Positions 7,531-32,000 of a stretch of 32,000 bases of DNA are shown one piece after another. Within the stretch, counting starts at the first letter, position 1, and each line of letters opens with the position of its first letter. The position numbers were made by a program, and so were the translations under genes. This DNA is from Wolbachia endosymbiont of Cimex lectularius (GTDB taxonomy: Bacteria > Pseudomonadota > Alphaproteobacteria > Rickettsiales > Anaplasmataceae). The notes under the pieces are model-generated. The model was not told the origin of the DNA and did not search any database. It worked only from the letters and a program-made list of their open reading frames with translations. The stretch spans positions 1,020,001 to 1,052,000 of the forward strand of contig NZ_AP013028.1 of assembly GCF_000829315.1 (NCBI RefSeq). Direction: 5' to 3'.

Positions 7531-7690
7531 TTTTATTTACTCTACTTAACACTTTAGTGTATTCCGTTCTTTTCTCGTTTCTATACTTTTCACACTCTTG
7601 ATTCATTTCGTCCAATTTTTTTGTTAATTCTAAAACTTTATCCTCAAGAGTTAGTGCTGCAAGTAGGAAATTTAGTGCGTCCGAGCCCTT
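7508..7690 (-). pseudogene. C-terminal fragment of a ZapA-like cell-division protein, cut off by IS copy 1
   Basis: Minus frame reads KGSDALNFLLAALTLEDKVLELTKKLDEMNQECEKYRNEKRTEYTKVLSRVNKIIECIKD then stop. No start codon: the frame runs directly into the IS terminus at 7691/7692. LLAALTLEDKVLEL resembles the ZapA helix motif (memory-based). Confidence 0.5.
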
Positions 7691-7691
7691 A

Positions 7692-8552
7692 GAACCTGTT
7701 TAAAATCTTGGAAATGTGAGGTAAAGTAAGCATAGATTAATAATGAGGTGTCTATGCAGAAAAGTTATCCAAGTAATATAAGTCAAGAGCAGTTTGAAAA
7801 AATCAGGCCAATTTTGGAGAGTAGCAAGCAGAAAACAAAACCAAGAAAACTTGATTTGTATGACGTATTTTGTGGGGTGTTGTACGTCTTAAAAAGTGGT
7901 TGTCAGTGGAGGATGTTACCAAAGGGTTTTCCAAGATGGGAAAGCGTATATTACTATTTTCGAGTGTGGAGTAAAAAGAATGGAGAAGAGCCAAGCTTGT
8001 TGGAATTAGTCTTAAAAAAAATTAGTTGGAGAGGTCCGTATCAGCAATGGTCGGAAAGAGAAAACTAGCTTTTGTATAATTGATTCTCAAAGCGTTAAAA
8101 ACGCAGATACTGCTGAAAAAAAAAGGCTATGATGCAGGTAAAAAGATTTCAGGGATAAAGCGCCATATTGCAGTTGATACACAAGGTTTGCCACATGCAA
8201 TTTATGTAACAACGGCAGAAGCAACTGACCGTAGCAGTGCTGTGAAAATGGTCGAAAATGCTAAAGCAAACCTCTCTGAAGTTAAAAACATACTGGTTGA
8301 TGCTGGCTACACAGGAGAAAATTTTGCAACACAAATAAAAGCTATCATTGGTGCGACTGTTGAAGTAATAAAGCGAAGTGAGTTACACACTTTCGTCGTA
8401 TTGCCAAAAAGATGGGTTGTTGAACGCTCTTTTGCCTGGTTAGAAAAGTGCAGGCGATTGTGGAAAAATTGCGAGCGGAAGCTCAACACTAGCTTACAGA
8501 TGATAGTCCTCTCCTTCATTTCTCTCCTGTTACGAAGATTTTAAACAGGTTC
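7692..8552 (+). mobile_element. IS5-family insertion sequence, copy 1 (861 bp, defective)
   Basis: Terminal inverted repeats GAACCTGTTTAAAATCTT at both ends. Flanks are TTA (left) and TAA (right), so they do not match. It has A9 at 8116-8124 where the other copies have A8, and A instead of G at 7980. Confidence 0.95.
7754..8544 (+). pseudogene. IS5-family DDE transposase (orfA/orfB), copy 1, extra frameshift
   Basis: OrfA has the CGVLYVLKSGCQWRMLP motif (DUF4096-type). OrfB has IIDSQSVK, GYDAGKKISGIKRHI, LVDAGYTG and VVERSFAWLEK (D, D, E). The A9 tract puts IIDSQSVK out of frame with the rest of the catalytic domain. Confidence 0.85.
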
Positions 8553-8582
8553 TAATGATGTGGTAGATGTCATTTAAGTAGC

Positions 8583-10401: not shown

Positions 10402-11870
10402 TCATAATGTTCGTATAGCTGCGACCCGAGAGGTGCTTTCTCTCATCCATTGCAGATATTGCACGGTGCTGTCAACTTGGTCATTGTGATGTGCTTCTGG
10501 GAACATTAAAATTTCATACTCAAAATCATTGAGCCATATCGCCTGGTGCGGCAGAAAAACTTTTCCAGACTCTATAATGGGAACAATCTGGTGGAATCGA
10601 GCGAGTTTGTCATCATGCGGTACTATTTCAATAACGGGTAAATCACTGCTTGCCTTTAGCTCTTGCACCAATTGCTGACCGCTTGTTTTTGCTTCGATCG
10701 AAATTGCGTGTGGTGTCCATCTTGCGGCTAAGGACAAAACTTGTTCTTTAAGTTTTGGGTACTCGAGTTTTGTACGATATACATCGAGTAAATAGAATTT
10801 ATTGCCCGCTTTTGCCCAAGTGGTGCAGACGCTGAAGTTGCTAGAGTTGCTCGTTGAAACTGCAGTATCCCAGCTCTGGGTTACATGCGAGAGGTTATCA
10901 GGAAAATTTCTATAGCGCTTCAGCCACTCTAGTTTGATTATACCACTTGAAAGCGGTAGAGGGTTTTGCTGATATTGCGCAGCAAAAGCATAGCTTCCAA
11001 GTTCAGCCTTTATCATCTTAACTTCCTTTTTTCCTTCATCCACAGAATATAATAGCTGGCCTTCTTCTCTTGAGTATAACATCTTTGCAGGTCTAGCACG
11101 CAATGCTGTTTTATTGCTGGTGTACTCATTTATAGTTGACCGAGCTACTTGGATGACAGAAACAGGATGCGCTGGCTTTTTGATTGAGTAAATAATCTCC
11201 TTATTTTCAGATATCATTAGTAAACAAATGCAGTGCCATATGTTTTTTAGTTTGGAGAGAAGGTGTCCGGTTAAGTCCTCTTGATGTAGCCTGTGCATCA
11301 CAAGGACAATAACTCCTTTTTTTCTATTGTTGAGCCTGCTTATCAGAGTCTGATCAAACCAGTTTGTGGCACGCTTTCTAAACGTTTCACTCAGAGCTTG
11401 AGTGGAGCTCAGTGGATCATCCACAATGATGAAATTTCCACCTTCGCCGGTTAGTGTCCCTCCAACAGATATTGCGATTCTATATCCTCTCTGCACTGTT
11501 TGAAATTTGTATTTAGTGTTTTGTTCTGTGGATAGCTCTACCTCTGGAAACAGCTCTCTATACCAACTAGACTGCATCACGCACCTTGTATCGAGCGAGT
11601 GCTTTTCGCTCAGCCGCTGAGAATAGCTTGCAACTATTATCCTTGCAGTTGGCTGATTGCCCAGTATCCACGCGGGCCACGCAACGCTCACACACATGGA
11701 TTTCATCGAGCGCGGCGGCATATTGAATATTATTCGCCTCATTTTGCCAACATTTGCTGCTTCAAGCCTGTCTGCTATGACTTTTACATACTATAGTCGT
11801 TATACTCACACCCCGGCATCACCGTTTTAAAGCATAACTCAATGAATTTTAGAAAGTTTATGTTTTCCAT
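10402..11870 (-). pseudogene. Phage terminase large subunit, orphan and frameshifted
   Basis: Track ORF 10402..11742 begins mid-domain. Upstream, ATG 11870 (preceded by AGGAG) opens MENINFLKFIELCFKTVMPGCEYNDYSM, with a stop at 11784-11786. The main frame (open from 11790) continues KVIADRLEAANVGKMRRIIFNMPPRSMKS. C-terminal nuclease-type end HHNDQVDSTVQYLQWM. Confidence 0.75.
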
Positions 11871-16011: not shown

Positions 16012-16014
16012 TAA

Positions 16015-16873
16015 GAACCTGTTTAAAATCTTGGAAATGTGAGGTAAAGTAAGCATAGATTAATAATGAGGTGTCTATGCAGAAAAGTTATCCAAGTAAT
16101 ATAAGTCAAGAGCAGTTTGAAAAAATCAGGCCAATTTTGGAGAGTAGCAAGCAGAAAACAAAACCAAGAAAACTTGATTTGTATGACGTATTTTGTGGGG
16201 TGTTGTACGTCTTAAAAAGTGGTTGTCAGTGGAGGATGTTACCAAAGGGTTTTCCAAGATGGGAAAGCGTATATTACTATTTTCGAGTGTGGAGTAAAAA
16301 GAGTGGAGAAGAGCCAAGCTTGTTGGAATTAGTCTTAAAAAAAATTAGTTGGAGAGGTCCGTATCAGCAATGGTCGGAAAGAGAAAACTAGCTTTTGTAT
16401 AATTGATTCTCAAAGCGTTAAAAACGCAGATACTGCTGAAAAAAAAGGCTATGATGCAGGTAAAAAGATTTCAGGGATAAAGCGCCATATTGCAGTTGAT
16501 ACACAAGGTTTGCCACATGCAATTTATGTAACAACGGCAGAAGCAACTGACCGTAGCAGTGCTGTGAAAATGGTCGAAAATGCTAAAGCAAACCTCTCTG
16601 AAGTTAAAAACATACTGGTTGATGCTGGCTACACAGGAGAAAATTTTGCAACACAAATAAAAGCTATCATTGGTGCGACTGTTGAAGTAATAAAGCGAAG
16701 TGAGTTACACACTTTCGTCGTATTGCCAAAAAGATGGGTTGTTGAACGCTCTTTTGCCTGGTTAGAAAAGTGCAGGCGATTGTGGAAAAATTGCGAGCGG
16801 AAGCTCAACACTAGCTTACAGATGATAGTCCTCTCCTTCATTTCTCTCTGTTACGAAGATTTTAAACAGGTTC
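16015..16873 (+). mobile_element. IS5-family insertion sequence, copy 2 (859 bp)
   Basis: Same termini as the other copies, flanked by TAA/TAA. One C is missing near 16848 (tttctctctg where the others have tttctctcctg). Confidence 0.95.
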
Positions 16874-20596: not shown

Positions 20597-22108
20597 TTAA
20601 TATATATATAAATTCTCATCCTTTTTATCTAACAAACCAAACGTTGGTACAATTGTTGCTTTTAAAAAGATGACGGTTTCTACTGTTCTCATGTTATCCG
20701 CTAGCCTTTTTGACTTCTGATGCAATGTAGCTTTAAGGCTTTGCTTATCTTCTCTATGCTCTATAAGTCCGCCAATTACCATAACTTCACCACTCTTGAT
20801 TTTTAACATAGAGTTCATTTCCCTAATTTCAATAATTGGAATGTTACTATTCAGTTTTGTTTTACTCTGCTGCGCGATGTACTCTATATTTGGGTCTTTA
20901 GTGTAGCCGTTAATTCTCGATAAGGTTGGGTGTATATCCATGAATATTTCACTAGTATCAACATTGATGCTTGGATGGATTATTAATACAACACCTATTG
21001 GAACGCTATTCATTTTGGTAACTAAGGTATGATTGGAGTTTTTTTGTATATCAGAGGTAAAATAAACGTGATTTTTAGTGAAAGAAATCATCGCTTGCTG
21101 ATTATTTATAGCATGTACTCTAGGGCTTGAAATCACAGTTGAAGTGCCAAATTTGTCTAGACTTTTTACTAAATTCCCCAGATCACCCACACCGAAGTTC
21201 ATTGCTAGATTAATAATGGAACTATCTTGACTCATTACAGGTTTGCTTCCATCGCGTAAATCATCTAAGTTGATACCAGAAAGGTACTTATCGTCTAACA
21301 CGACTTCAACTATCTTTGCCTCTATCATTACTTGAGAAGACGCTAACTGCTTAACTTTATTAATATATTCTTCAACAGCTTTGTGGATGCTTTTTCTAGC
21401 ATTCAAAATAATAACACCGGCTTCTCTATTAGATGAAAGAAATTCTCCATCATTCACCCCGTTAACATCCATTATTGCATTCAACCCCTTTTCCAATGAG
21501 TTCCATAAATCGCTGCTATATTGAGACTTTATAACACTATTATAATCCTTATCGGCATTGATCCCATCACTGCTGGTAATATTGTTGTTAACAACAAAAC
21601 TGCTTTGAGCAGAGTGTTGAATATTGATAAAGTCTACGTAATAATTTTGCGTGTACGGTAAATCCTGCTCAATTCTAATCACGCCATTACTTGTTGAGTA
21701 ACGCAGTTTGGCGCTATCAGCTATGCTCTGAATTACTTCATTTATATTTTTATCTTTTAGCTTTAAAATAATATTGCCTGATATTTTTGGATCTATATCT
21801 AAGTTAATGTCAGAAAGTTTTCCTATCTCAATCAGCAAATCCTTTACTGGCACTTCTTCGCCAATATTAATAGAAATAAGCTGGCTACTGGCCGTGAAAT
21901 CAGGAAACTTTACGGGCAAAGGTACAATCTCTGGTACTGTTGGTTCGTTGCTCTCCGAAGGAAAAATTTTGCCCTTACATTGCCTCAGTGAGTGGTCATG
22001 CTCAATATCATGATGATTTTTGTCGTCTATGTGGGTAATATATCCCTGAGTAGGTAAGCATATACAGGAGATGATAAAAAGGAGCATTGAGCATCTAAAA
22101 ATGGTCAT
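20597..22108 (-). CDS. Secretin-family outer-membrane channel, MshL/PilQ-like lipoprotein
   Basis: 503 aa. Lipobox-like LLFIISC. N-domain ISINIGEEVPVKDLLIEIGKLSDINLDIDPKISGNIILKLKD. Secretin core VISSPRVHAINNQQAMISF, IPIIEIREMNSMLKIKSGEVMVIGGLI, ETVIFLKATIV. Confidence 0.85.
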   Translation of the reverse strand: MTIFRCSMLLFIISCICLPTQGYITHIDDKNHHDIEHDHSLRQCKGKIFPSESNEPTVPEIVPLPVKFPDFTASSQLISINIGEEVPVKDLLIEIGKLSDINLDIDPKISGNIILKLKDKNINEVIQSIADSAKLRYSTSNGVIRIEQDLPYTQNYYVDFINIQHSAQSSFVVNNNITSSDGINADKDYNSVIKSQYSSDLWNSLEKGLNAIMDVNGVNDGEFLSSNREAGVIILNARKSIHKAVEEYINKVKQLASSQVMIEAKIVEVVLDDKYLSGINLDDLRDGSKPVMSQDSSIINLAMNFGVGDLGNLVKSLDKFGTSTVISSPRVHAINNQQAMISFTKNHVYFTSDIQKNSNHTLVTKMNSVPIGVVLIIHPSINVDTSEIFMDIHPTLSRINGYTKDPNIEYIAQQSKTKLNSNIPIIEIREMNSMLKIKSGEVMVIGGLIEHREDKQSLKATLHQKSKRLADNMRTVETVIFLKATIVPTFGLLDKKDENLYIY

Positions 22109-22110
22109 TA

Positions 22111-22970
22111 GAACCTGTTTAAAATCTTCGTAACAGGAGAGAAATGAAGGAGAGGACTATCATCTGTAAGCTAGTGTTGAGCTTCCGCTCGCAATTTTTC
22201 CACAATCGCCTGCACTTTTCTAACCAGGCAAAAGAGCGTTCAACAACCCATCTTTTTGGCAATACGACGAAAGTGTGTAACTCACTTCGCTTTATTACTT
22301 CAACAGTCGCACCAATGATAGCTTTTATTTGTGTTGCAAAATTTTCTCCTGTGTAGCCAGCATCAACCAGTATGTTTTTAACTTCAGAGAGGTTTGCTTT
22401 AGCATTTTCGACCATTTTCACAGCACTGCTACGGTCAGTTGCTTCTGCCGTTGTTACATAAATTGCATGTGGCAAACCTTGTGTATCAACTGCAATATGG
22501 CGCTTTATCCCTGAAATCTTTTTACCTGCATCATAGCCTTTTTTTTCAGCAGTATCTGCGTTTTTAACGCTTTGAGAATCAATTATACAAAAGCTAGTTT
22601 TCTCTTTCCGACCATTGCTGATACGGACCTCTCCAACTAATTTTTTTTAAGACTAATTCCAACAAGCTTGGCTCTTCTCCACTCTTTTTACTCCACACTC
22701 GAAAATAGTAATATACGCTTTCCCATCTTGGAAAACCCTTTGGTAACATCCTCCACTGACAACCACTTTTTAAGACGTACAACACCCCACAAAATACGTC
22801 ATACAAATCAAGTTTTCTTGGTTTTGTTTTCTGCTTGCTACTCTCCAAAATTGGCCTGATTTTTTCAAACTGCTCTTGACTTATATTACTTGGATAACTT
22901 TTCTGCATAGACACCTCATTATTAATCTATGCTTACTTTACCTCACATTTCCAAGATTTTAAACAGGTTC
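22111..22970 (-). mobile_element. IS5-family insertion sequence, copy 3 (860 bp, apparently intact)
   Basis: Flanked by TTA/TTA on the plus strand (22108-22110 and 22971-22973). T8 tract at 22641-22648. Sequence matches copy 4. Confidence 0.95.
22119..22908 (-). CDS. IS5-family transposase, copy 3 (orfA/orfB joined by +1 frame change)
   Basis: OrfA 22594..22908; orfB frame open from the A8 tract to stop 22119. DDE motifs as in copy 1 but with a continuous orfB frame. Confidence 0.85.
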
Positions 22971-23083
22971 TTAGAAAAAAAGCATATAAAACCATTCTAA
23001 TAGATTTCTGTAAAAATATTAAAAATGTATTTAATTTTGTTTTTATCTGGCAGAATCACTACACTAAATGCTACAAATTTACA

Positions 23084-23271: not shown

Positions 23272-23445
23272 CAAAGGATTACAATAACTTGAAGGAAGAA
23301 ATTTATGTCTGATCAAAAAAAGTTTGCATCATATGCATTAATAGCCATAGGATCTGCAGGACTTATAGCTGGTATCGTAGCTCTCAAATACTGTTCTAAT
23401 TTATCGCTTTTGATTGCAGGGGGAATAATTGGTTCTACGCCTTTA

Positions 23446-24305
23446 GAACCTGTTTAAAATCTTGGAAATGTGAGGTAAAGTAAGCATAGATTAATAATGA
23501 GGTGTCTATGCAGAAAAGTTATCCAAGTAATATAAGTCAAGAGCAGTTTGAAAAAATCAGGCCAATTTTGGAGAGTAGCAAGCAGAAAACAAAACCAAGA
23601 AAACTTGATTTGTATGACGTATTTTGTGGGGTGTTGTACGTCTTAAAAAGTGGTTGTCAGTGGAGGATGTTACCAAAGGGTTTTCCAAGATGGGAAAGCG
23701 TATATTACTATTTTCGAGTGTGGAGTAAAAAGAGTGGAGAAGAGCCAAGCTTGTTGGAATTAGTCTTAAAAAAAATTAGTTGGAGAGGTCCGTATCAGCA
23801 ATGGTCGGAAAGAGAAAACTAGCTTTTGTATAATTGATTCTCAAAGCGTTAAAAACGCAGATACTGCTGAAAAAAAAGGCTATGATGCAGGTAAAAAGAT
23901 TTCAGGGATAAAGCGCCATATTGCAGTTGATACACAAGGTTTGCCACATGCAATTTATGTAACAACGGCAGAAGCAACTGACCGTAGCAGTGCTGTGAAA
24001 ATGGTCGAAAATGCTAAAGCAAACCTCTCTGAAGTTAAAAACATACTGGTTGATGCTGGCTACACAGGAGAAAATTTTGCAACACAAATAAAAGCTATCA
24101 TTGGTGCGACTGTTGAAGTAATAAAGCGAAGTGAGTTACACACTTTCGTCGTATTGCCAAAAAGATGGGTTGTTGAACGCTCTTTTGCCTGGTTAGAAAA
24201 GTGCAGGCGATTGTGGAAAAATTGCGAGCGGAAGCTCAACACTAGCTTACAGATGATAGTCCTCTCCTTCATTTCTCTCCTGTTACGAAGATTTTAAACA
24301 GGTTC
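23446..24305 (+). mobile_element. IS5-family insertion sequence, copy 4 (860 bp, apparently intact)
   Basis: Flanked by TTA (23443-23445) and TTA (24306-24308). A8 tract at 23768-23775. Confidence 0.95.
23508..24297 (+). CDS. IS5-family transposase, copy 4 (orfA/orfB joined by +1 frame change)
   Basis: OrfA codons start at positions divisible by 3 (stop 23820-23822). The orfB frame starts at positions congruent to 1 mod 3 and opens at 23770 inside the A8 tract. Confidence 0.85.
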
Positions 24306-24907
24306 TTACTAATTGCATGTGTTGGTTTTGGCGTTTTATTGCTTATGGATAAGATTTCTCTCGACAAAATATATGGTGATACGTACGATCAAAATAGCTT
24401 TAGTAAACTGGTTATATCTGCTATAGCACATGTTGGCATTTCTTTTGGAATCGGAGCAGGCTTAGTTGCTCTTGGCCTTAAATCTCCCCTGGTTATAGCT
24501 GTCTTAACTCCAATAGCATGCAAAGTTATTATGTTACTTTTTAGTGCGATAACTGAACGCTCTTCTTCTCCACCAACACCACCAGGTGATCCTGATCCAA
24601 GCAAAAAAGACCCTTCTTCTCCACCAAGGCCACCATGTGTTGACAGCAACGTGAAGACTGACGGTGCAAATCCCACAGATCACCCAGAAAGAAGAGAATA
24701 TGATGGCAAACGTACTGAAAGAAAGTGTAAAACATATGCCACCCGCAAAAAGCCTATTATAGTCATAGATGAGGATAAAGAGGATCACATTAGCAAAGAA
24801 CAACAGCTTGTACAAAGTTTAGAGGACCACTTCAAAAGAATAGCAAATTTGAAAATAGAAATTCCAGGGAATGCTGATGATGTTAATAAGTGTAGTTTTC
24901 CTAGCCA

Positions 24908-25840
24908 CTAGTCAATTCTTTCCATCCAAGCATTCACTTGCCTTAACGTTTCAACAGAAGGCAAGTCTTCTGTGCTGAGTGGTAGACGGACAGTTTTGTG
25001 CTCTATGAGCCCAATATCATGCAGGAGTGCTTTGGTAGGTATGGGGTTACTGGCAATAAATAGTTCTTTGCAGGCTTGTTGCCAAACATCCGCTGAGCTT
25101 TTTACATTACCTTCTGTCATTTGAGCAGTTGTTTTTTTCTTAGATTCCAGCGTCATGTGCTGGAATGACAGTAGGCATCGCTTAACATATTCATGCGCTA
25201 CGTGTGGCCAAATATTGGAGGCAACAGAAACCAGGCCAGTCGCACCACAAGCAGCCATGTCAGATATCATATTATCATCTCCACAAAAAACTTCGACGTT
25301 TGGCGCAACTTTCTTATATTCAATTAAAGTATCAACAGTACCACTTGAATCTTTGATAGCCCAAAATTTTTCGTGGCTGGATAAATTGCGTACAGTTTTA
25401 GTATGAAGATTCACTCCTGCTCTCGATGGAATGTTATAAAGCATAGCTGGCACATGTGCTTTCTCAAGTAGCTTTTCAAACCATAAAGTCTGCCCCATGA
25501 TTCCAGGCTTTGTATAAATTGGAGTTGTCATGAGATAACCATGAATAGGCATATCCTTGCAAAAGTCAAGCCACTTGAGAGCATGATATAAATTCACTCC
25601 CGGTACGCCAATCATAATTTTCGTGTTTAATGCCAGCTTACACACGAATTCAACTAATGTACGTTTTTCAGAATCAGTGAGTGACAAGCCCTCACCTGTG
25701 CTACCTAGCAACACTACGCCATTTCCAGCTTCAGCTTGCATTGTAAGTAAACGCTGCAAACTGCGGTAATCTATGCTGTCTCCGCTACAATTAAAAGGTG
25801 TGACACAAGCAGTCCATAGAAATGTAGATAATGATTTCAA
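24908..25840 (-). CDS. dapA: 4-hydroxy-tetrahydrodipicolinate synthase
   Basis: 310 aa with a TTG start. VTPF...LLGSTGEG...YNIPSRAG...IKDSSG...NPIPTKALL. Contains an in-frame palindromic element. Confidence 0.88.
   Translation of the reverse strand: MKSLSTFLWTACVTPFNCSGDSIDYRSLQRLLTMQAEAGNGVVLLGSTGEGLSLTDSEKRTLVEFVCKLALNTKIMIGVPGVNLYHALKWLDFCKDMPIHGYLMTTPIYTKPGIMGQTLWFEKLLEKAHVPAMLYNIPSRAGVNLHTKTVRNLSSHEKFWAIKDSSGTVDTLIEYKKVAPNVEVFCGDDNMISDMAACGATGLVSVASNIWPHVAHEYVKRCLLSFQHMTLESKKKTTAQMTEGNVKSSADVWQQACKELFIASNPIPTKALLHDIGLIEHKTVRLPLSTEDLPSVETLRQVNAWMERID
25135..25172. repeat. Palindromic repeat element copy inside dapA
   Basis: ttagattccagcgtcatgtgctggaatgacag (stem ATTCCAGC / GCTGGAAT) matches 12016-12050 tttctggattccagcgtcacgcgctggaatgacac. 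Confidence 0.7.
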
Positions 25841-26387: not shown

Positions 26388-26393
26388 ATCTAA

Positions 26394-26467
26394 TGCGCTT
26401 GGAGGGATTTGAACCCACGGCCTTTGCCTCCGGAGGGCAACGCTCTATCCAACTGAGCTACAAGCGC
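26394..26467 (-). tRNA. tRNA-Arg (anticodon CCG)
   Basis: 74 nt: GCGCTTG TA GCTC AGTTGGATA GAGC G TTGCC CTCCGGA GGCAA AGGCC GTGGG TTCAAAT CCCTC CAAGCGC A. Perfect acceptor, D and anticodon stems. One U-U mismatch in the T stem. CCA is not encoded. Confidence 0.9.
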
Positions 26468-26479
26468 ACATATATTAAA

Positions 26480-27298
26480 TTATCTAATAGATAAGCTATC
26501 TAAGTCAAATTTTTGGCCCGGATAGAGCGTGAACATAACGTTCCCATCACCTAAATATACATTCTGAGAATTATTCGCTCGCTTTTTTATTACTTTTTGG
26601 TCTACAATCCATACAAAAGTTACATAGTTTTCAGTCACTGAATGAACTTTTAAATCCTTAGCGTTCGAAAACAGCCTTCCATTCACCCATATTCTCCATG
26701 TATCAGAAGAAAAGTATAAAATCGAATCTAAACTCACCATCTTATAATTAAAATTATCTAATATCCTTTCTTCTGCAGCTCCCGAAGATCGCAGGTGAAA
26801 TTTTTCCATTTCACTGACTATCTTATTAATTGATTCCTCATCAAAAAAAATGCTTTTCATATCATTATATTGTGATAAGACGTCAAAGTCACTCTCTACT
26901 GCTTCCTTTATTATATCATCCTGATCAGTATAACTTGTTTTGCGATCGTTTATAAAAAAACATTCTTTTGCACGCAAATTTGCTATGTTAATAAAATCAT
27001 CGACTTCTTGATTACCAACTTTGAAAACGCTCTCGAAATATTTTTTTTCCATCATTACTCCATGTTTAGAGTGATGACAAACCATTTCATCATTATCTTG
27101 TTTTTCTATATATACACATAAACCCTTGCTACTTAATCCCAGTATTCTGTGCTCGATAAAGTCCTCATTGCCAATATATTGTCGACAAGTATATTCTTTA
27201 CAAATTTCTATGCTTTCTATAATACCTTTACAACTGCAATATACATTCACACTGAAAAACAGTAGAGTAAAAATAAAAAACAGCTTTATCTTCATCAT
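26480..27298 (-). CDS. Secreted/periplasmic protein with a C-terminal PilP/GspC-HR-like beta domain (MshK/PilP position)
   Basis: Signal peptide MMKIKLFFIFTLLFFSVNVYC, Cys-rich N-domain, acidic linker, and a beta-rich end LDSILYFSSDTWRIWVNGRLFS...VTFVWIV. Start lies 1 nt after the upstream stop (TGAgATG). Confidence 0.45.
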   Translation of the reverse strand: MMKIKLFFIFTLLFFSVNVYCSCKGIIESIEICKEYTCRQYIGNEDFIEHRILGLSSKGLCVYIEKQDNDEMVCHHSKHGVMMEKKYFESVFKVGNQEVDDFINIANLRAKECFFINDRKTSYTDQDDIIKEAVESDFDVLSQYNDMKSIFFDEESINKIVSEMEKFHLRSSGAAEERILDNFNYKMVSLDSILYFSSDTWRIWVNGRLFSNAKDLKVHSVTENYVTFVWIVDQKVIKKRANNSQNVYLGDGNVMFTLYPGQKFDLDSLSIR

Positions 27299-27299
27299 C

Positions 27300-27907
27300 T
27301 CATCTATTTAGTATAGTGTACCAGTCAAAGACCATATTAGCTCTCACTATCTCTATCATATTACCATTCAAAATCTGATTCATAGTTGAAGCATCAATAT
27401 CTCTCTCTTTATTTAGAATAAGAGATTTGATCGTAACATAACCAGGCAGACTTGGAATAGACTGTAAAAATAAAAAAATATGCTTATCGCTAATTGAACT
27501 GAAGTTTAGGGTAACTTTACTTTTTATCACTTTTGTGTGTTCAGTTTCACCGTGTAATTCAACTTCCTCAGGTATGGAAATTGATATCTCAGGCTCTAGT
27601 ATGTAGTATTTTTTATATAGCTTGCCAAGCTCGAAATTCAGATTTGCAATGTATCTGCTGCTGTGTAAATTTGAAGAAGAAATTCTTTTCCACAAATCTA
27701 GGTTTTTATTTAAAACAACTTCCTTTTTTTGGACTTCAGTGATTTGTAGATTTATAGAACGTATCTCATCAATGGCATTTTGGTTTTTACTATGGACTTT
27801 TTTGTATAAATAACAACGTAAGTTAACGCCCCTATTAACCCAACAGATAATAACAAATAAAACACAAGTTGAATTGCAACTCTTTTTTTTAATTGGAAGA
27901 TATTCAT
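27300..27907 (-). pseudogene. PilO/MshJ/GspM-like bitopic membrane protein, one frameshift
   Basis: ATG 27907 opens MNIFQLKKRVAIQLVFYLLLSVGLIGALTYVVIYTKK..., with a stop at 27752-27754. A second frame continues ...NQNAIDEIRSINLQITEVQKKEVVLNKNLDLWKR... into track ORF 27300..27695. The frame switch must lie in the T4/T5/T6 runs at 27778-27803. Confidence 0.55.
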
Positions 27908-27911
27908 TAGT

Positions 27912-29321
27912 TTACATAGCCTCTCCTATTTTAACATCAATAGATATATTTTGCTTTTTAATGACAGGCAAACTAGAAATATCAATGTCATAGGTGCGAA
28001 AATTGTTGTTTAATTTTTTTTGTAGTTCCTTGTATTGATAAGAAACACCTTTGCCAGGTTGAAAGTCAAAACTTAAAGCTGTAGTAATATAATTTTCCGC
28101 CTCATTATAACTCCACTTAAATGATTGAAGTTCGACACCCGGTACTTTTAATTTTTCTACATACCTCACTTGCACAAGAGGAGAATATTCCATCTTAGAT
28201 AAAATGTTATTGATGTTAATAAAATCATAGACCTCACTTATTCTTTTCACATTATAGTTTTGGCTGAGTTTCATTAATTGATTATCTAAGGCTCCCTTTC
28301 TTGCTGATAAATTACCGGCAACGTTAAGATTTGAATGCAAACTTAACAAATAAAGGGTGTTGATTACAATTAAAATTGAAGCAAAGTATAGAAAAATTCG
28401 AGGAGAGTGAAAATAAAGGTAATTTAATAGATAAAATTCTTTAGTTTCTTTTGTATTGAAAATAGCTGCCGGCTTATTCTTAAAACTGTGGAATAGAATT
28501 ATGGTATCGCAGAAACTGTCTTTCTCACTTACAACTAATTCTAACCCTAGCAATTTACCCAGCTCATATGGAGTTAATATGCTCACGCTATTCTCCGAAA
28601 AACTTATGATTGATAAACTAGTCTTAATATCTTCTGGTACTACCATGCAAAGGTCGATAAGGTCGTTTTTCTTGAGGCCAAACTTAGTTAAGGACCGAAT
28701 AGTATTTCGCACTTCTTGATATATTCCACCCGCAATAATTCCTGGTAGATTATCCTTAGTAAACGGCACTAAACGCGTAAATACCATTTTATTCTCTTTA
28801 AAAACCAACTTGTCTATAGCCTCCAGTTTTGGTTGCAACAACTATGATCTTCCAATTATCAGGGTCTTTATAGAAGACCTTTTTTGCCATATTATCTATT
28901 TCTATAGGAAACATTAATATTCCCTTAAAGTTAGAGCCTATCTCTATAAACACATTCAACCAATATTCCACTAAATGTTTTGCTTTTGATGACACAAGAA
29001 GATAATACCAGTTTTGGTTAAGTTTATTTGGTTTTTCAACCAAATAAACTGAGCTTATATCGTTATTGCGAGCAAAATGCTCCACCTTTGCTTTTGCTGA
29101 TAGGTAGGCACTAATCCTATTTACTTTTGGAATGGACTGTAGCAAGTAATTCTGATCTGCATGATTAAGTACTAGATACAAAGGTGCTTTTTTATCCGAT
29201 GAAAGGCATAAATTTAGATCAGATACTGCTTTATCATTTTGTCCTTAATGAAATATCTTTTATTTAAAATGTTATTTTTGAAATATAGTAATATTATACC
29301 TCCTTCTCCAACAGAAAGCAT
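27912..29321 (-). pseudogene. PilM+PilN fusion-like protein (MshI/GspL architecture), two frameshifts
   Basis: Three frames: 29214..29321 (MLSVGEGGIILLYFKNN...), 28798..29244 (...WKIIVVATKTGGYRQVGF) and 27912..28841 (...KENKMVFTRLVPF...GIIAGGIYQEV..., TM IFLYFASILIVINTLYLLSL, then about 140 aa periplasmic). Breaks lie at the homopolymers 29237-29240 and 28800-28804. Confidence 0.55.
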
Positions 29322-29649
29322 GAACCTACTTTTGGATTTTAAACTAAACATATTAACAGAGTGTATACTTATCCATAATTAAAAAAGCAATTTATTGAAA
29401 TTTATTAAACGTTATAGGGAAATATTGTTATAAATTTCTACAACAACATTATTTATATTATAATTTTATTAATAAATTTAGTACTAATATTAACCAATTT
29501 ATATAATAAAATTAAGAAAATTTATTTTACAATTTTAATTGACATAAATCATTAACCTGGTTATGATTAATATAGTATTAATACGTGGGGTAAAAAAGTG
29601 GTATCTGTGCAGCTAAGCAGTGTGAGAAATAATAGCTATATATAAGCTA

Positions 29650-30870
29650 CTATTGAACATAATACACACAATTAAAGCTATTACAACTTGAACACTTGTA
29701 ATCCCACTGCTTTAGCTGTTTACTACAGTTTTTACATTTCCAACATGGGTCAGGCAAAGCTTCTGAACCCATCTTGTTTAGTAAGTGAATTGCCTCGTCG
29801 TATTCTTGCAATTTAATTTTAAGCCGCACCATAATAAGGTAGACTGATATGTAATTAGCTTTTTTCATAGCAATGTCTAGATGTTGATTTGCAAGATCAT
29901 ACTTACCTAAGCTAATTGAAGATAAAGCAAGTAAACAATAACTAAAATAATAATCAGGACGCAAGCCGTATAGTTTTTCAGCACCTTTACTATTTAAACT
30001 GATGTAAATTTTTGCTGACTCAGGAGTAGGATTTACTGTATACTCTGCCTCTAGTACTGCAGAAGCTTTTCTGATTTTTCCAAGTTTAATATATAATTTC
30101 GCCTTTAAATAATTGATAGGCTGAAAAGTTGCGCAATGATTTTGTGCTCTAAATAAAGACTTTATAGCTTCCTTATAATTCCCTTTACTTTCATATTGCT
30201 TTGCTAAAGCGCAATAAAAAACTGCTAACATTTTTTTGCAATCAAAAGGAAGAAAAATATTGAACTTCGCAGCTTCCTTTAACTTCAAAATTGCGCAAGC
30301 CCAATCTTCTTGTAATATGCAATGCTCTATTTGAAAGGGAATAGACAGAATTTTATCATTAACCGAACTTGAGCAATACTCTATGAATTTTTGAAAGATT
30401 GCTCCTTCTTGTTTGAGATGGACAATTAGTTTATTGGCCAGAAGTAGAGCTAAGTTGCGATTTTTACTTGCAATGTTTGTTAAACCATTGCTGAAGAAGC
30501 TGTAATTTCCCATCTTACCTGAGTTAAAGAGCTTTATTAAAGATAACTTATCGCTTTCCTCATTTAGATTTTTAACCAGCTTGTGAGCGTTCTCTGTATT
30601 GCCCAAATCCATGCTAAAAAGAGCTTCAAAAAGAAGCAATTCTTCTTTATCCTTTCTTCTATTTCTTATGTTGGCAAATGTTGATGAAATGGAAGAACAA
30701 AAGCGTGCAAGTATAATTAATAAAAACAATAAAAATACACAAGCAAAAATAATGAAATATAGATCAACACTTATAGTGTAACTGCCTAATTCTAATCTCA
30801 TTACTTCACCGCTCACTTTGACCCATATGCCAAATAAAAAAGAGAGAGCGAAAACTATGAAGTAAATCAT
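29650..30870 (-). CDS. HemY-like membrane TPR protein with C-terminal Cys4 zinc-ribbon
   Basis: 406 aa. Two N-terminal TM helices, TPR-like repeats, and the end CWKCKNCSKQLKQWDYKCSSCNSFN. Its ATG overlaps the upstream stop (ATGA). Confidence 0.65.
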   Translation of the reverse strand: MIYFIVFALSFLFGIWVKVSGEVMRLELGSYTISVDLYFIIFACVFLLFLLIILARFCSSISSTFANIRNRRKDKEELLLFEALFSMDLGNTENAHKLVKNLNEESDKLSLIKLFNSGKMGNYSFFSNGLTNIASKNRNLALLLANKLIVHLKQEGAIFQKFIEYCSSSVNDKILSIPFQIEHCILQEDWACAILKLKEAAKFNIFLPFDCKKMLAVFYCALAKQYESKGNYKEAIKSLFRAQNHCATFQPINYLKAKLYIKLGKIRKASAVLEAEYTVNPTPESAKIYISLNSKGAEKLYGLRPDYYFSYCLLALSSISLGKYDLANQHLDIAMKKANYISVYLIMVRLKIKLQEYDEAIHLLNKMGSEALPDPCWKCKNCSKQLKQWDYKCSSCNSFNCVYYVQ

Positions 30871-31598
30871 GAGATATATTGTAATAAGTGATGATATATT
30901 ATTGAAATATTCTTAGAAGCTACAATAAAACCATTTAATTTACTGAGCCATGGTTTAAATTCTGGATGTGTTAAATCGCCTATTGTGGTAGCTATGCTCT
31001 GCCAATCATTATCGTTTATTGACTCCTCAATTTCTGCCAACTTTACTCTCAGTGGATCGTTTTTATCTTTTACCTTTATCCAGTTGGAAATGATTCTTTT
31101 AAAGAATGTACTCTTATTGTAGTCAATAACAGCAATGGTCTTTTCAAAAGATAACTTCAACTCATGTAAAGTATTTATCTCTTTTAAACTTTCCAATTCA
31201 CTCACTGCATTCTCTATCTCTGGGTCGTCAAGCTCCGATATTAAAGGCTTTATTGAATTTATATGATTATCAAATCTTGCTTCTTGTAATAACGAATTCT
31301 TCATTTTAATCACAAGTAGCAGCAATTTTGCAAGGTTCTTATGCCTTGAGCTACCATCACCTTGCTCACATTGAGTGTGCAGATTCCTCTTTAGTTCAAA
31401 CATCTTTTTTTCTATTCTAGATTGATTAACCTCAAGTAACATCTTGAGCTCATCTATGTTTTCCGTCAAAACCTTTATATTATCCTCGCTTTCTTGCTGA
31501 TTTATTTTTAAAAATACTATGTTATTTATTGTAATATAACTGACAAACAATAACACAATTAAGAACCAGCCTATGCATTTTTGCTGAGTATCATTCAT
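30867..31598 (-). CDS. HemX/Mic60 (mitofilin)-like membrane coiled-coil protein
   Basis: ATG 31598 (MNDTQQKCIGWFLIVLLFVSYITINNIVFL as TM), a long coiled-coil, and the C-terminal segment LAEIEESINDNDWQSIATTIGDLTHPEFKPWLSKLNGFIVASKNI. Track start 31649 would overlap the lolC/E gene. Confidence 0.5.
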   Translation of the reverse strand: MNDTQQKCIGWFLIVLLFVSYITINNIVFLKINQQESEDNIKVLTENIDELKMLLEVNQSRIEKKMFELKRNLHTQCEQGDGSSRHKNLAKLLLLVIKMKNSLLQEARFDNHINSIKPLISELDDPEIENAVSELESLKEINTLHELKLSFEKTIAVIDYNKSTFFKRIISNWIKVKDKNDPLRVKLAEIEESINDNDWQSIATTIGDLTHPEFKPWLSKLNGFIVASKNISIIYHHLLQYIS

Positions 31599-32000
31599 AC
31601 CGTAGTATCTCCGCAGGATCTTGCGCAGCTGCTTGTAATGCAGGAGCAATTGTTGCTAAAAATGACAGAAACAATGCAAGTGCAAAAATATTTACCACGT
31701 CTTGGGGAACTAATATCACTGGCAAGCTTGAAAAAAAGTATATCATAGGATCAAATAATTTAACGTTAGTGATGCTCTCTAAAAACACTCTAATATTTTC
31801 AATATTGAGAGAAAAAACAACACCTATAATACAGCCAAGACAAGTTCCTATAAAACCAATCAGTAGCCCACAAGTGCAAAATATGCGCATAATGCTTCCA
31901 GTTGTTGCACCAAATGTACGCATGATTGCAATTGCAGATTTCTTTTCTTGCACTATCATCATTAAATTTGAGACAATATTGAATGCTGCCACAATTATAA
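31591..32000 (-). CDS. Lipoprotein-releasing system permease LolC/E (FtsX domain), C-terminal part only
   Basis: Frame is open to the window edge. MRTFGATTGSIMRIF...FLATIAPALQAAAQDPAEILRYE is the typical FtsX-type C-terminus. Confidence 0.8.
   Translation of the reverse strand, partial: IIVAAFNIVSNLMMIVQEKKSAIAIMRTFGATTGSIMRIFCTCGLLIGFIGTCLGCIIGVVFSLNIENIRVFLESITNVKLFDPMIYFFSSLPVILVPQDVVNIFALALFLSFLATIAPALQAAAQDPAEILRYE

Follow-up and report, generated by a model that had tools for sequence, protein, structure and literature searches.

What are three genes that resemble the inner-membrane alignment complex of a type IV pilus doing in an obligate endosymbiont, with no pilin, ATPase or platform gene beside them? 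The question arises from a 32,000-nucleotide stretch of DNA from the Wolbachia endosymbiont of Cimex lectularius (wCle; contig NZ_AP013028.1, positions 1,020,001 to 1,052,000), which we call the window and in which all coordinates are counted. The origin of the window agrees with a 100% protein match to this endosymbiont. A first-pass annotation, drawn from the sequence alone, had proposed that an operon in this window encodes a PilM-PilN fusion, a PilO-like protein and a PilP-like protein. The three genes, here termed A, B and C, do lie packed on the minus strand, with gaps of 4 nt between A and B (A stop codon 27912-27914, B ATG 27907) and 1 nt between B and C (B stop codon 27300-27302, C ATG 27298), and every peptide motif that had been cited was located in the sequence.

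Gene A (27912..29351, minus strand) is a pseudogene of 479 aa once repaired, in which a cytoplasmic domain, predicted to be PilM-like, is fused to a periplasmic one of PilN type. The length of about 470 aa given previously was close, but the start at 29321 was not retained, as orthologues place it at 29351 (MFSLKSKSRF-MLSVGE...), 30 nt further upstream. Gene B (27300..27907, minus strand) is likewise a pseudogene and yields a repaired product of 202 aa, PilO-like in its predicted layout: a membrane helix at the N-terminus, then a coiled coil and an alpha/beta domain. Gene C (26480..27298, minus strand; 272 aa, BAP00350.1) is intact, and its signal peptide is followed by a Cys-rich N-terminal domain, a linker and, at the C-terminus, a beta domain; 11 nt downstream of it follows a tRNA-Arg(CCG) gene (26393..26468, minus strand), a neighbour outside the module. 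A promoter and terminator scan was uninformative: 19 promoter-like sites were expected and 23 counted, with no terminators. The larger ORFs in the window that were scanned against Pfam are BamA, RseP, Era, an exonuclease, a terminase-like protein and a member of the endo/exonuclease-phosphatase family, together with a sodium:dicarboxylate-family transporter, PrsA, a radical-SAM enzyme and a WSP-like outer-membrane protein, as well as ssb, dapA, IS copies and a HemY-like protein. Among them, the Pfam scan revealed no ATPase, platform or pilin gene, as the earlier remark on missing partner genes had it.

Predicted architecture of the A, B and C proteins

The structure of A was read from an AF2 model of a 93%-identical orthologue, a model of moderate confidence (pLDDT 63, pTM 0.34) with pLDDT 70-83 over residues 400-479. 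Model and Foldseek search together point to a cytoplasmic actin-like domain of the PilM/GspL type (28542..29351, minus strand; residues ~1-270) built from two beta-beta-beta-alpha-beta-alpha-beta-alpha halves. A single transmembrane helix is predicted behind it (28332..28403, minus strand; residues ~317-340, IFLYFASILIVINTLYLLSL), visible as a hydrophobic stretch in the sequence and as part of a long helix, residues 301-364, in the model. The rest of the protein (27915..28331, minus strand) would form a coiled coil and a PilN-like domain, as judged from the model and from hhalign to the B family; its alpha-beta-beta-alpha-beta-beta order, at residues 391-478, comes from the predicted secondary structure. 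On this model, an actin-like (ASKHA) domain of the PilM/GspL type would be joined in A by a single membrane helix to a coiled coil and a periplasmic domain of ferredoxin-like fold.

Searched against the PDB with Foldseek, the A model returned PilM or the actin-like BT_3980 as its 11 top matches (E 1e-10 to 5e-9), the best being PilM 3jc8_Ma (1.4e-10) with 5eoy and 2ych close behind; FtsA came after PilM, followed by GspL/EpsL/PulL at 1e-7 to 2e-6. The TM-scores between A and PilM are low (0.2-0.3), and the match depends on local 3Di similarity. Sequence profiles were far less responsive. The A family is large (778 representatives at 50% identity, E <= 1e-3; intact orthologues of 469-500 aa), and neither the window ORFs nor 72 family members matched Pfam PilM_2, PilN, T2SSL or GspL_C or the NCBIfam Pil/Msh/Gsp models. 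Nor did PDB sequences yield anything significant when searched with profiles of the three families, the A family reaching a marginal PilN match (3jc8_Na, E 0.25). The proposed PilM-PilN fusion with GspL/MshI architecture is supported by the ranking of PilM at 1e-10, then FtsA, then GspL. The wider expectation, that profile or structure searches would recover the Pil or Gsp families, was borne out by the fold match of A to PilM but not by the Pil/Msh/Gsp profiles, which matched neither A nor B.

For B, the informative comparison was internal. Aligned with hhalign, the B family matched the A family with a probability of 89% (E 2e-6), residues 37-157 of B pairing with 347-454 of A, while the control of B against C gave 0.85%. 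Judged by this profile alignment, B is a distant paralogue of the periplasmic part of A, as PilO is of PilN, and the PilO/MshJ/GspM architecture suggested at the outset gains support from this relationship. None of 64 B members matched Pfam PilO/T2SSM or NCBIfam models, and the PDB sequence search with B was also empty. B is the orthologue of wMel WD_0772, and the Wolbachia B orthologues, as listed, all have 202 aa but for one 196-aa partial sequence.

The C-terminal part of C is a candidate secretin-binding domain of the HR type (GspB/GspC/PilP-like; 26483..26746, minus strand; residues ~185-272). An AF2 model built on 31 sequences, mostly from Wolbachia, shows a seven-strand beta domain at residues 187-265 (pLDDT ~75-87). 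The HR domain of GspB shares the PilP/GspC fold and attaches to the secretin's N0 domain (PMC9239104). Pfam T2SSB was matched by 9 of 57 C-family members (best E 0.0026), and GspB 4wfw_A recurred in the PDB search with the C family at a sub-threshold E of 0.11-0.17, in competition with weak FN3 matches. Foldseek against the PDB came up with nothing for the C model, neither PilP nor GspC nor GspB, the best E being 0.16. NCBIfam scans of 57-72 members per family returned only noise and matches that reflect membrane helix plus coiled coil (FtsL, FliL), and Pfam and NCBIfam scans of the window ORFs gave nothing for A, B or C. The all-beta domain of C weakly resembles, at the sequence level, the secretin-binding domain of GspB/GspC/PilP; of the previous PilP/MshK/GspC assignment, the recurrent GspB/T2SSB matches speak in its favour, but the fold search came back empty. 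The Cys-rich N-terminal domain of C is common to its Ehrlichia counterpart.

Synteny with pilus motor genes in less reduced relatives

The strongest evidence for a pilus ancestry of the trio is synteny. A locus search with a 14-sequence subset yielded 77-78 loci from less reduced Rickettsiales and other alphaproteobacteria. Counted from the A-like gene, a B-like gene stood at +1 in 73 of 77 loci and a C-like gene at +2 in 70 of 77, with PilC/GspF at -1 (64/77), PilB at -2 (60/77) and a pair of PilT/PilU genes at +4/+5 or +5/+6. HMMs derived from these B-like and C-like genes recovered Wolbachia B at 1e-37 and Wolbachia C at ~8e-21 to 1e-22, the latter at its C-terminal beta domain. By NCBIfam, the neighbours were identified as PilB (1e-155, with an MshE-type c-di-GMP domain above cut-off), GspF (7e-87) and PilT/PilU (above cut-off), and one locus, L067, also contained a prepilin. 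It may be that the MAG relatives have, at some other place in the genome, a canonical pilMNOPQ set as well. A comparison of orthologous loci, proposed along with the first-pass annotation, bore fruit: the trio is present in wMel and Ehrlichia ruminantium (there as A-B-C'), with motor genes not adjoining, and stands next to PilB-PilC in less reduced relatives.

We consider it likely that A-B-C was inherited vertically and is what remains, highly diverged, of the ancestral Rickettsiales type IVa pilus, namely of its inner-membrane alignment subcomplex, and that this remnant is decaying in wCle. The ancestral-type order would be pilB-pilC-A-B-C with pilT/pilU alongside, as in free-living and less reduced relatives. 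A would have filled the PilM and PilN roles in one chain, its actin-like cytoplasmic domain docking the PilB/PilC motor, and B would be a PilO-like partner, presumably pairing with A via coiled coils and alpha/beta domains. Among the Anaplasmataceae, the loci examined have no motor genes adjoining the trio, A is kept across the family, and Wolbachia also retains one orphan secretin.

An orphan secretin near the operon

This secretin (20597..22108, minus strand; 503 aa, BAP00341.1) lies 4.37 kb past the end of C on the same strand and is a possible outer-membrane partner of the trio. It is annotated as GspD and matches Pfam Secretin at 5.6e-19; its best model is MshL (NCBIfam, 1e-41), with 142.7 bits below the cut-off of 250.2. 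Between trio and secretin are ssb, dapA and two inverted IS copies, the IS pair on the dapA-secretin side. One copy (22105..22974, minus strand) abuts the secretin start codon and belongs to a set of four copies of this IS in the window that are identical over their shared length; the inverted copy (23445..24306, plus strand), identified by IS comparison in the window, lies between secretin and dapA. A secretin beside the trio was absent in wMel, in Ehrlichia and in 80 of 80 related loci, and in the relatives examined none was ever within 10 kb of it. We rejected nearness as evidence of a functional link, since relatives do not conserve the adjacency and IS copies intervene. The MSHA-type arrangement once read into the locus holds for a MshL-like secretin 4.4 kb away on the same strand, but not for an I-J-K-L order, and in relatives the secretin is non-adjacent. 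We do infer that trio and secretin may be physically linked.

The secretin also bears on an alternative that we regard as unlikely, namely that A-B-C is the assembly platform of a type II secretion system (T2SS), of GspL/GspM/GspB(C) type, working with the GspD-annotated secretin. The fused GspL-type architecture of A, the GspL cytoplasmic domains among its fold matches, T2SSB/GspB as the sole recurrent family match of C and the platform gene of the relatives, which scores best as GspF, would all fit such a system. However, two PilT/PilU retraction ATPases flank the operon of the relatives, whose assembly ATPase scores slightly better as PilB and has the MshE-type domain; PilM ranks above GspL in the fold search, and the best model of the secretin is MshL, not GspD. 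The two machines are homologous, and the distinction is one of degree.

Decay of the operon in wCle

In wCle, A is broken into three ORFs (29214-29351, 28798-29181 and 27912-28841) and B into two (27752-27907 and 27300-27695). A DNA alignment with an intact, 97%-identical relative (L084) revealed exactly three single-base indels across both genes. The first, in A (29237..29240, minus strand), is a 1-nt deletion that leaves an A4 run where L084 has A5; the second, also in A (28807..28808, minus strand), is an extra T (CAAGTTGG vs CAAGTGG); and the third, in B (27804..27805, minus strand), is a G absent between these two bases (TATACAAAAAAG vs TATAGCAAAAAAG). Mending the three frameshifts in silico, as had been suggested, restored full-length frames of 479 aa for A and 202 aa for B, the lengths of the orthologues, with zero further stop codons.

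That the operon is nevertheless functional in wCle, with frameshifts that are sequencing errors or are corrected by slippage so that full-length A and B are made, appears very improbable. It is true that the repaired frames are free of stop codons apart from the three indels, that dN/dS against the close relative is still low (0.16-0.19) and that one indel sits in a short A run. Nevertheless, the same truncated products recur on several other contigs and in separately deposited assemblies: the 131-aa fragment of B is found on 11 contigs, including separately deposited MAG assemblies, and fragments of A on 6-7. RefSeq lists the A and B fragments as separate proteins, and two of the three indels lie outside homopolymers of slippage length (A4, GTT/GG, lost G in TAGCA). 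Sequencing error was rejected on these grounds, namely the same fragments on other contigs and the two indels outside homopolymer runs. In a sister strain, moreover, C has acquired a nonsense mutation independently, a sign that constraint may be relaxed in the wCle clade.

A and B are pseudogenes in wCle. Because only C and the secretin are still open reading frames there, A having two frameshifts and B one, the module is in course of loss, and wCle, an obligate nutritional mutualist, offers a case of gene decay in progress. That the set might have a purpose other than a pilus, as suggested earlier, is inapplicable to wCle because A and B are pseudogenes there, but is plausible for other Anaplasmataceae.

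Retention across the Anaplasmataceae

Outside wCle, most relatives in the family appear to have retained unbroken genes, without a pilus motor. A is retained in Wolbachia, Ehrlichia, Anaplasma, Neoehrlichia and Mesenet, where it is annotated as "hypothetical". In wMel, its orthologue is the 479-aa gene upstream of WD_0772, by position apparently WD0771. With a dN/dS of ~0.15 between Wolbachia strains (0.13-0.19 for comparisons with wMel), sequence comparison indicates that the trio is under purifying selection between these strains. WD0771 and WD0772 were listed in 2007 among Rickettsiales 'signature proteins', hypothetical and of unknown function, and their restricted Rickettsiales/Anaplasmataceae distribution was already noted then (Gupta and Mok 2007, PMC2241609). 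Our literature search found the module undescribed in these endosymbionts, the wMel orthologues figuring only as hypothetical 'signature proteins', in agreement with the first-pass annotation, by which no such alignment complex is known for this kind of obligate endosymbiont.

Because of this purifying selection, the trio probably still works in Wolbachia strains, most likely as a filament-less scaffold. In other Wolbachia, it would span the envelope and position or stabilise the secretin. More tentatively, we propose as one possibility a re-use in Anaplasmataceae of the PilMN-fusion, PilO-like and HR proteins after loss of motor and pilins: as a filament-less, envelope-spanning assembly, they could form with the secretin, in Wolbachia, a gated outer-membrane channel or an inner-outer membrane tether, or else a cage for, e.g., the rvh type IV secretion system. 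If this re-use is true, that of PilMNO in the Helicobacter pylori flagellar motor would be a parallel, and wCle and its sister strain would be natural knock-outs in a nutritional mutualist.

Could Wolbachia and its relatives instead still build a type IV filament, with a motor whose genes lie at another place in the genome and with pilins that are very diverged or unrecognised? A trio that went unannotated for 20 years implies that other diverged parts could hide too, and purifying selection is maintained; we nevertheless hold this to be highly improbable. PilB, PilC and PilT are highly conserved and easy to detect (E 1e-87 to 1e-155 in the relatives), and none of them is in the annotation tables of 29 Wolbachia genomes, the published source for saying that Wolbachia lacks PilB, PilC and pilins. 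In these tables, Wolbachia genomes have a single T2SS-like protein and no annotated pilus genes (PMC7397232, Table S8). The type IV pilus is an ancestral trait of Rickettsiales that is seldom found in the crown families (PMC9352585, PMC10847448), and published reconstructions put pilus loss in crown Rickettsiales. Least probable of all is a superficial resemblance without pilus ancestry, with A a generic actin-fold membrane protein (e.g. FtsA-like) and B FtsL-like: FtsA is among the fold matches of A, a few family members weakly match FtsL models and the Pil-family sequence models have no match, but the operon linkage with PilB and PilC is strict (~60-73/77 loci), PilM ranks over FtsA, and the FtsL matches (3-6 members, E > 1e-4) reflect membrane helix and coiled coil only.

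The alignment-subcomplex reading gives a testable identity to conserved hypothetical proteins of tick-borne pathogens (Ehrlichia, Anaplasma) and of the Wolbachia used in mosquito control, and a possible explanation for the lone 'T2SS protein', the secretin, annotated in most Wolbachia genomes. It would mean that the ancestral pilus was lost only in part, its scaffold outlasting the motor, and it raises the question of the role of a filament-less alignment complex inside a host cell. The Pfam and NCBIfam models tested miss this diverged alignment-complex family, which has at least 778 representatives at 50% identity; where Alphaproteobacteria are surveyed for type IV pili with such models, these components could therefore be undercounted.

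Comparison with known systems

The proteins known from the signature-protein study are the wMel orthologues of A (by position) and B; that paper described no link to pilus machinery and no synteny with pilB-pilC.

The GspL-GspM-GspC/GspB platform is matched by the fused actin-like domain, membrane helix and periplasmic domain of A, as in GspL, by B, which parallels GspM or MshJ alike, and, weakly, by the beta domain of C, whose only recurrent matches are to GspB (T2SSB). The fused GspL-type architecture is shared by MshI. With MSHA, the secretin of wCle has its best model, MshL, in common, and the ATPase of the relatives has the MshE-type c-di-GMP domain. As differences from this pair of systems, GspL falls below PilM in the A fold search, C is without the PDZ domain of GspC, there is no contiguous I-J-K-L order, the MshL score of the secretin is under the family cut-off, and the relatives of the trio carry retraction ATPases.

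In H. pylori, an orphan PilM-PilN-PilO operon forms a flagellar motor cage, with no type IV pilus (PMC10823254). Alignment-complex homologues are likewise kept there without other recognisable pilus genes, a precedent for re-use. Wolbachia, in contrast, is without a flagellum, and any new partner would have to be sought in the orphan secretin or in some other envelope machine. H. pylori encodes the proteins as separate chains, and re-use in Anaplasmataceae is proposed by analogy.

Compared to the PilM-PilN-PilO-PilP complex of type IVa pili (Pseudomonas, Myxococcus, Thermus), the trio differs in having its PilM and PilN parts fused and no match to the Pfam/NCBIfam models, in that C is not a lipoprotein and has an extra Cys-rich domain in Wolbachia and Ehrlichia, and in that it follows pilB-pilC instead of preceding pilQ; in Anaplasmataceae, it is also without an adjoining motor, platform or pilin gene. 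What it shares with PilMNOP is an actin-like cytoplasmic component whose best match is PilM, two apparently paralogous bitopic proteins with coiled coil and alpha/beta periplasmic domain (part of A, and B), C as the third, periplasmic protein, bearing a small predicted beta domain, the order M/N, O, P, and, in relatives, linkage to PilB, PilC and PilT/U.

Synteny of the trio with a type IVa pilus operon

Genes A (27912-29351), B (27300-27907) and C (26480-27298) of the Wolbachia endosymbiont of Cimex lectularius (wCle) lie on the minus strand, packed as the first-pass annotation described, with gaps of 4 nt (A-B) and 1 nt (B-C). Pfam and NCBIfam models recognised none of the A, B or C ORFs. 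When 57-72 diverse members per family were scanned singly against both libraries, A and B again gave no Pil, Msh or Gsp recognition, and profile searches of the three families against all PDB sequences returned no significant match. An exhaustive HMM search yielded 778 representatives of family A at 50% identity. We took 80 loci from species-representative genomes, all of them metagenome-assembled Rickettsiales or other Alphaproteobacteria, including the Athabascaceae MAG UBA6187, and clustered all neighbouring ORFs; A could be placed in 77 loci, which served as the denominator. An ATPase of 600-700 aa occupied position -2 of A in 60 of the 77 loci, a polytopic membrane protein of ~400 aa position -1 (64/77), a B-like gene position +1 (73/77) and a C-like gene position +2 (70/77), and two ATPases of ~380 aa were encoded on the opposite strand at positions +4/+5 or +5/+6 in ~30-37 loci each. 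By NCBIfam, the ATPase neighbour is PilB/GspE (1e-155), with an MshE-type c-di-GMP-binding N-domain that exceeds its cut-off, and the membrane protein is GspF/PilC (7e-87). PilT/PilU neighbours also exceed their cut-off, and further neighbours comprise a weakly PilW-like TPR protein and, in one Midichloriaceae locus, prepilins. HMMs of the B-like and C-like genes match Wolbachia B at 1e-37 and Wolbachia C at 1e-22, which makes the Wolbachia trio orthologous to the final three genes of a pilB-pilC-A-B-C operon. Judged by synteny, A-B-C belongs to the type IVa pilus machinery, with no need of a fold argument.

In the same 80 loci (L001-L080), position +3 of A holds an ABC-transporter ATP-binding protein of ~250 aa (best NCBIfam model GldA-like), encoded after the C-like gene and in the same orientation in 61 loci; it may share an operon with the pilus genes.

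Predicted architecture of A and B

Protein A was modelled with AlphaFold2 from an intact, 93% identical orthologue (pLDDT 63). Residues 1-267 of the model form two beta-beta-beta-alpha-beta-alpha-beta-alpha halves, followed by a long helix with a hydrophobic segment and a C-terminal alpha-beta-beta-alpha-beta-beta domain. A Foldseek search of the PDB ranked PilM of Myxococcus, Pseudomonas and Thermus at the top (E 1.4e-10 to 5e-9), followed by FtsA and then by the cytoplasmic domains of PulL, EpsL and GspL (1e-7 to 2e-6). Poor packing of the domains in the model keeps TM-scores low, and the evidence is thus one of local structural similarity rather than global superposition. The product of gene B carries a membrane helix at its N-terminus and a heptad-rich segment. 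Its family profile aligned with the periplasmic part of the A family at an hhalign probability of 89% (E 2e-6), compared to 0.85% for the B versus C control. B thus relates to the periplasmic part of A as PilO does to PilN, and as GspM does to the C-terminal part of GspL. The structural reading made from sequence, with A as a PilM-PilN fusion and B as PilO-like, was right in kind: for A it agrees with the PilM-topped list and the predicted fusion architecture, for B with the paralogy to A.

A candidate secretin-binding domain in protein C

The model of C (pLDDT 67) proceeds from a signal peptide through a Cys-rich domain, a disordered linker and a helix to a seven-strand beta domain. C had been proposed as a PilP/MshK/GspC protein. 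The beta domain is present in the model, and Pfam T2SSB (GspB) is the only family that C matched recurrently, though weakly (9 of 57 members, best E 0.0026); Foldseek of the model found none of PilP, GspC and GspB. The only non-FN3 PDB sequence match for C was GspB 4wfw_A (E 0.11-0.17). The HR domain of GspB, a small periplasmic beta domain, has the fold of GspC-HR and PilP and binds the N-terminal (N0) domain of the secretin (PMC9239104). C is thus a plausible, but only putative, HR-type secretin binder.

The N-terminal domain of C (26983-27235, residues 22-105) contains eight invariant or nearly invariant cysteines and is confidently predicted as alpha+beta (pLDDT 74-87). The C-like proteins of the MAG relatives lack such a domain and the PDB offers no matching fold; the domain appears to be an Anaplasmataceae innovation.

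Distribution and flanks in Anaplasmataceae

Comparison of the orthologous locus across strains located the trio in wMel and Ehrlichia ruminantium. Family A, annotated 'hypothetical' throughout, also occurs in Candidatus Mesenet, Anaplasma centrale, A. capra, A. bovis and Candidatus Neoehrlichia. In E. ruminantium, A has 482 aa and B 208 aa (HMM match 4e-37), and the match of the third protein, of 180 aa (L085:12067-12609), to Wolbachia C (E 2e-8) is confined to the N-terminal 176 residues of the latter. This counterpart covers the Cys-rich part and the 'KSIFF' helix region and lacks the candidate secretin-binding beta domain. The wMel trio (WD_0772 and the genes adjoining it, WD0771-0773) is flanked by an ABC transporter on one side and by ssb-dapA on the other, and no secretin is close by; WD0771 and WD0772, both hypothetical, have been listed as signature proteins of Rickettsiales and Anaplasmataceae, respectively (Gupta and Mok 2007, PMC2241609). 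Upstream of A in wCle (29650-31649, minus strand) we found instead a HemY_N/TPR protein of 406 aa and a protein of 260 aa that matches no family and is predicted to be membrane-anchored. The upstream flank of the trio is therefore not conserved, whereas the downstream ssb-dapA is.

Decay of the module in wCle

The frameshifted state of gene A was confirmed, its start being moved by orthologue comparison from the 29321 of the first-pass annotation to 29351, 30 nt upstream. In wCle, A is split into three ORFs and B into two, and C retains an intact open frame of 272 aa (matching BAP00350.1); the product of the largest ORF fragment, 298 aa, is 100% identical to a RefSeq protein of the bed-bug Wolbachia. 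DNA alignment with L084, a 97% identical relative with intact A and B, located exactly three single-base indels in A and B, all given on the minus strand: A4 in place of A5 at 29240-29237 and one T too many at 28808/28807 in gene A, and a G lost between 27805 and 27804 in gene B. Their repair in silico restored, as anticipated, reading frames of 479 aa for A and 202 aa for B, with no further stops and with the lengths of other Wolbachia orthologues. The 131-aa B fragment was found on 11 contigs, some from separately deposited metagenome-assembled genomes, and the A fragments on 6-7. Because the fragments recur across contigs and two of the three indels fall outside homopolymer runs long enough for slippage, we class wCle A and B as pseudogenes; as encoded, the module cannot work there.

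Judged by the still low dN/dS against the close relative (0.19 for A, 0.16 for B), the decay of A and B in wCle is recent. Between wMel and supergroup-F strains, dN/dS values of 0.13-0.17 for all three genes indicate long-term purifying selection on the trio. The closest relative with intact A and B, a supergroup-F-like strain, carries a lesion in gene C (L083:2458-3147 and L084:2357-3046), where TGG is changed to a stop at the nearly invariant Trp230 and the sequence beyond is still in frame. This lesion is independent of those in wCle and affects the same operon in a sister lineage, which suggests that constraint on A-B-C has loosened in the supergroup-F clade of wCle.

The secretin and the missing pilus parts

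The secretin (20597-22108, 503 aa, matching BAP00341.1) is recognised by Pfam Secretin (5.6e-19), and its best NCBIfam model is MshL (1e-41), at 142.7 bits under the cut-off of 250.2. The wMel secretin is WD_RS02220. Four IS copies of ~860 nt (7688-8558, 16012-16848, 22105-22974 and 23445-24306), identical over their shared lengths, each contain a 106-aa and a 118-aa ORF in different frames, apparently a transposase split by frameshift; two copies face in opposite orientations, with 473 nt between them. One copy abuts the secretin start codon and has thus taken the place of the native upstream sequence, and the stretch from the secretin to dapA holds a second, inverted copy. Neither wMel nor Ehrlichia nor any related locus shares the placement of the secretin 4.4 kb downstream of C. 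The earlier reading of an MSHA order with a nearby secretin therefore fails, and this proximity is most likely a by-product of IS-mediated rearrangement, giving no evidence of co-function.

The secretin N-terminus (22030-22108) has a signal sequence (MTIFRCSMLLFIISC...) with a lipobox-like I-I-S-C motif, suggesting a lipidated, self-piloting protein. Adjoining an IS copy and converging on dapA is a 190-aa ORF (24339-24911, plus strand) whose product is predicted to contain membrane helices and has a proline-rich tail (SSPPTPPGDPDPSKKDPSSPPRPP). Elsewhere, a 446-aa ORF (10402-11742, minus strand) matches a terminase RNaseH-like domain (Terminase_6C, 2.5e-14), probably as a relic of a prophage or gene-transfer agent.

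A scan of the larger ORFs of the window revealed no pilus, pilin or prepilin gene, in line with the partner genes having been reported as missing. For Wolbachia as a whole, pilus loss rests on published genome annotations: in a survey of 29 genomes, the secretin is the sole 'T2SS' entry of each genome, and no pilus, pilin or prepilin is listed; wOo and wOv lack the secretin, and in wVitB and wWb it is a pseudogene (PMC7397232, Table S8). A type IV pilus has been placed in the last common ancestor of Rickettsiales, its components occurring 'only rarely' in crown families (PMC9352585, PMC10847448).

Discussion

Our data establish the homology and ancestry of the trio and, as far as structure prediction goes, how A and B are built. 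A-B-C is a very diverged, partly fused alignment subcomplex, orphaned in an obligate intracellular family. In the inner membrane, A and B would pair as a heterodimer of the PilN/PilO kind, the C beta domain may touch the N0 ring of the secretin, and in Anaplasmataceae the filament-less scaffold may keep some non-pilus role. Such a role, which the first-pass annotation had considered, would apply, if at all, to other strains and not to wCle, which is losing the module. A precedent is provided by H. pylori, where a PilMNO operon is kept without any pilus and its products are built into the flagellar motor cage (PMC10823254). As Wolbachia has no flagellum, the partner of the trio would be the secretin or another envelope machine.
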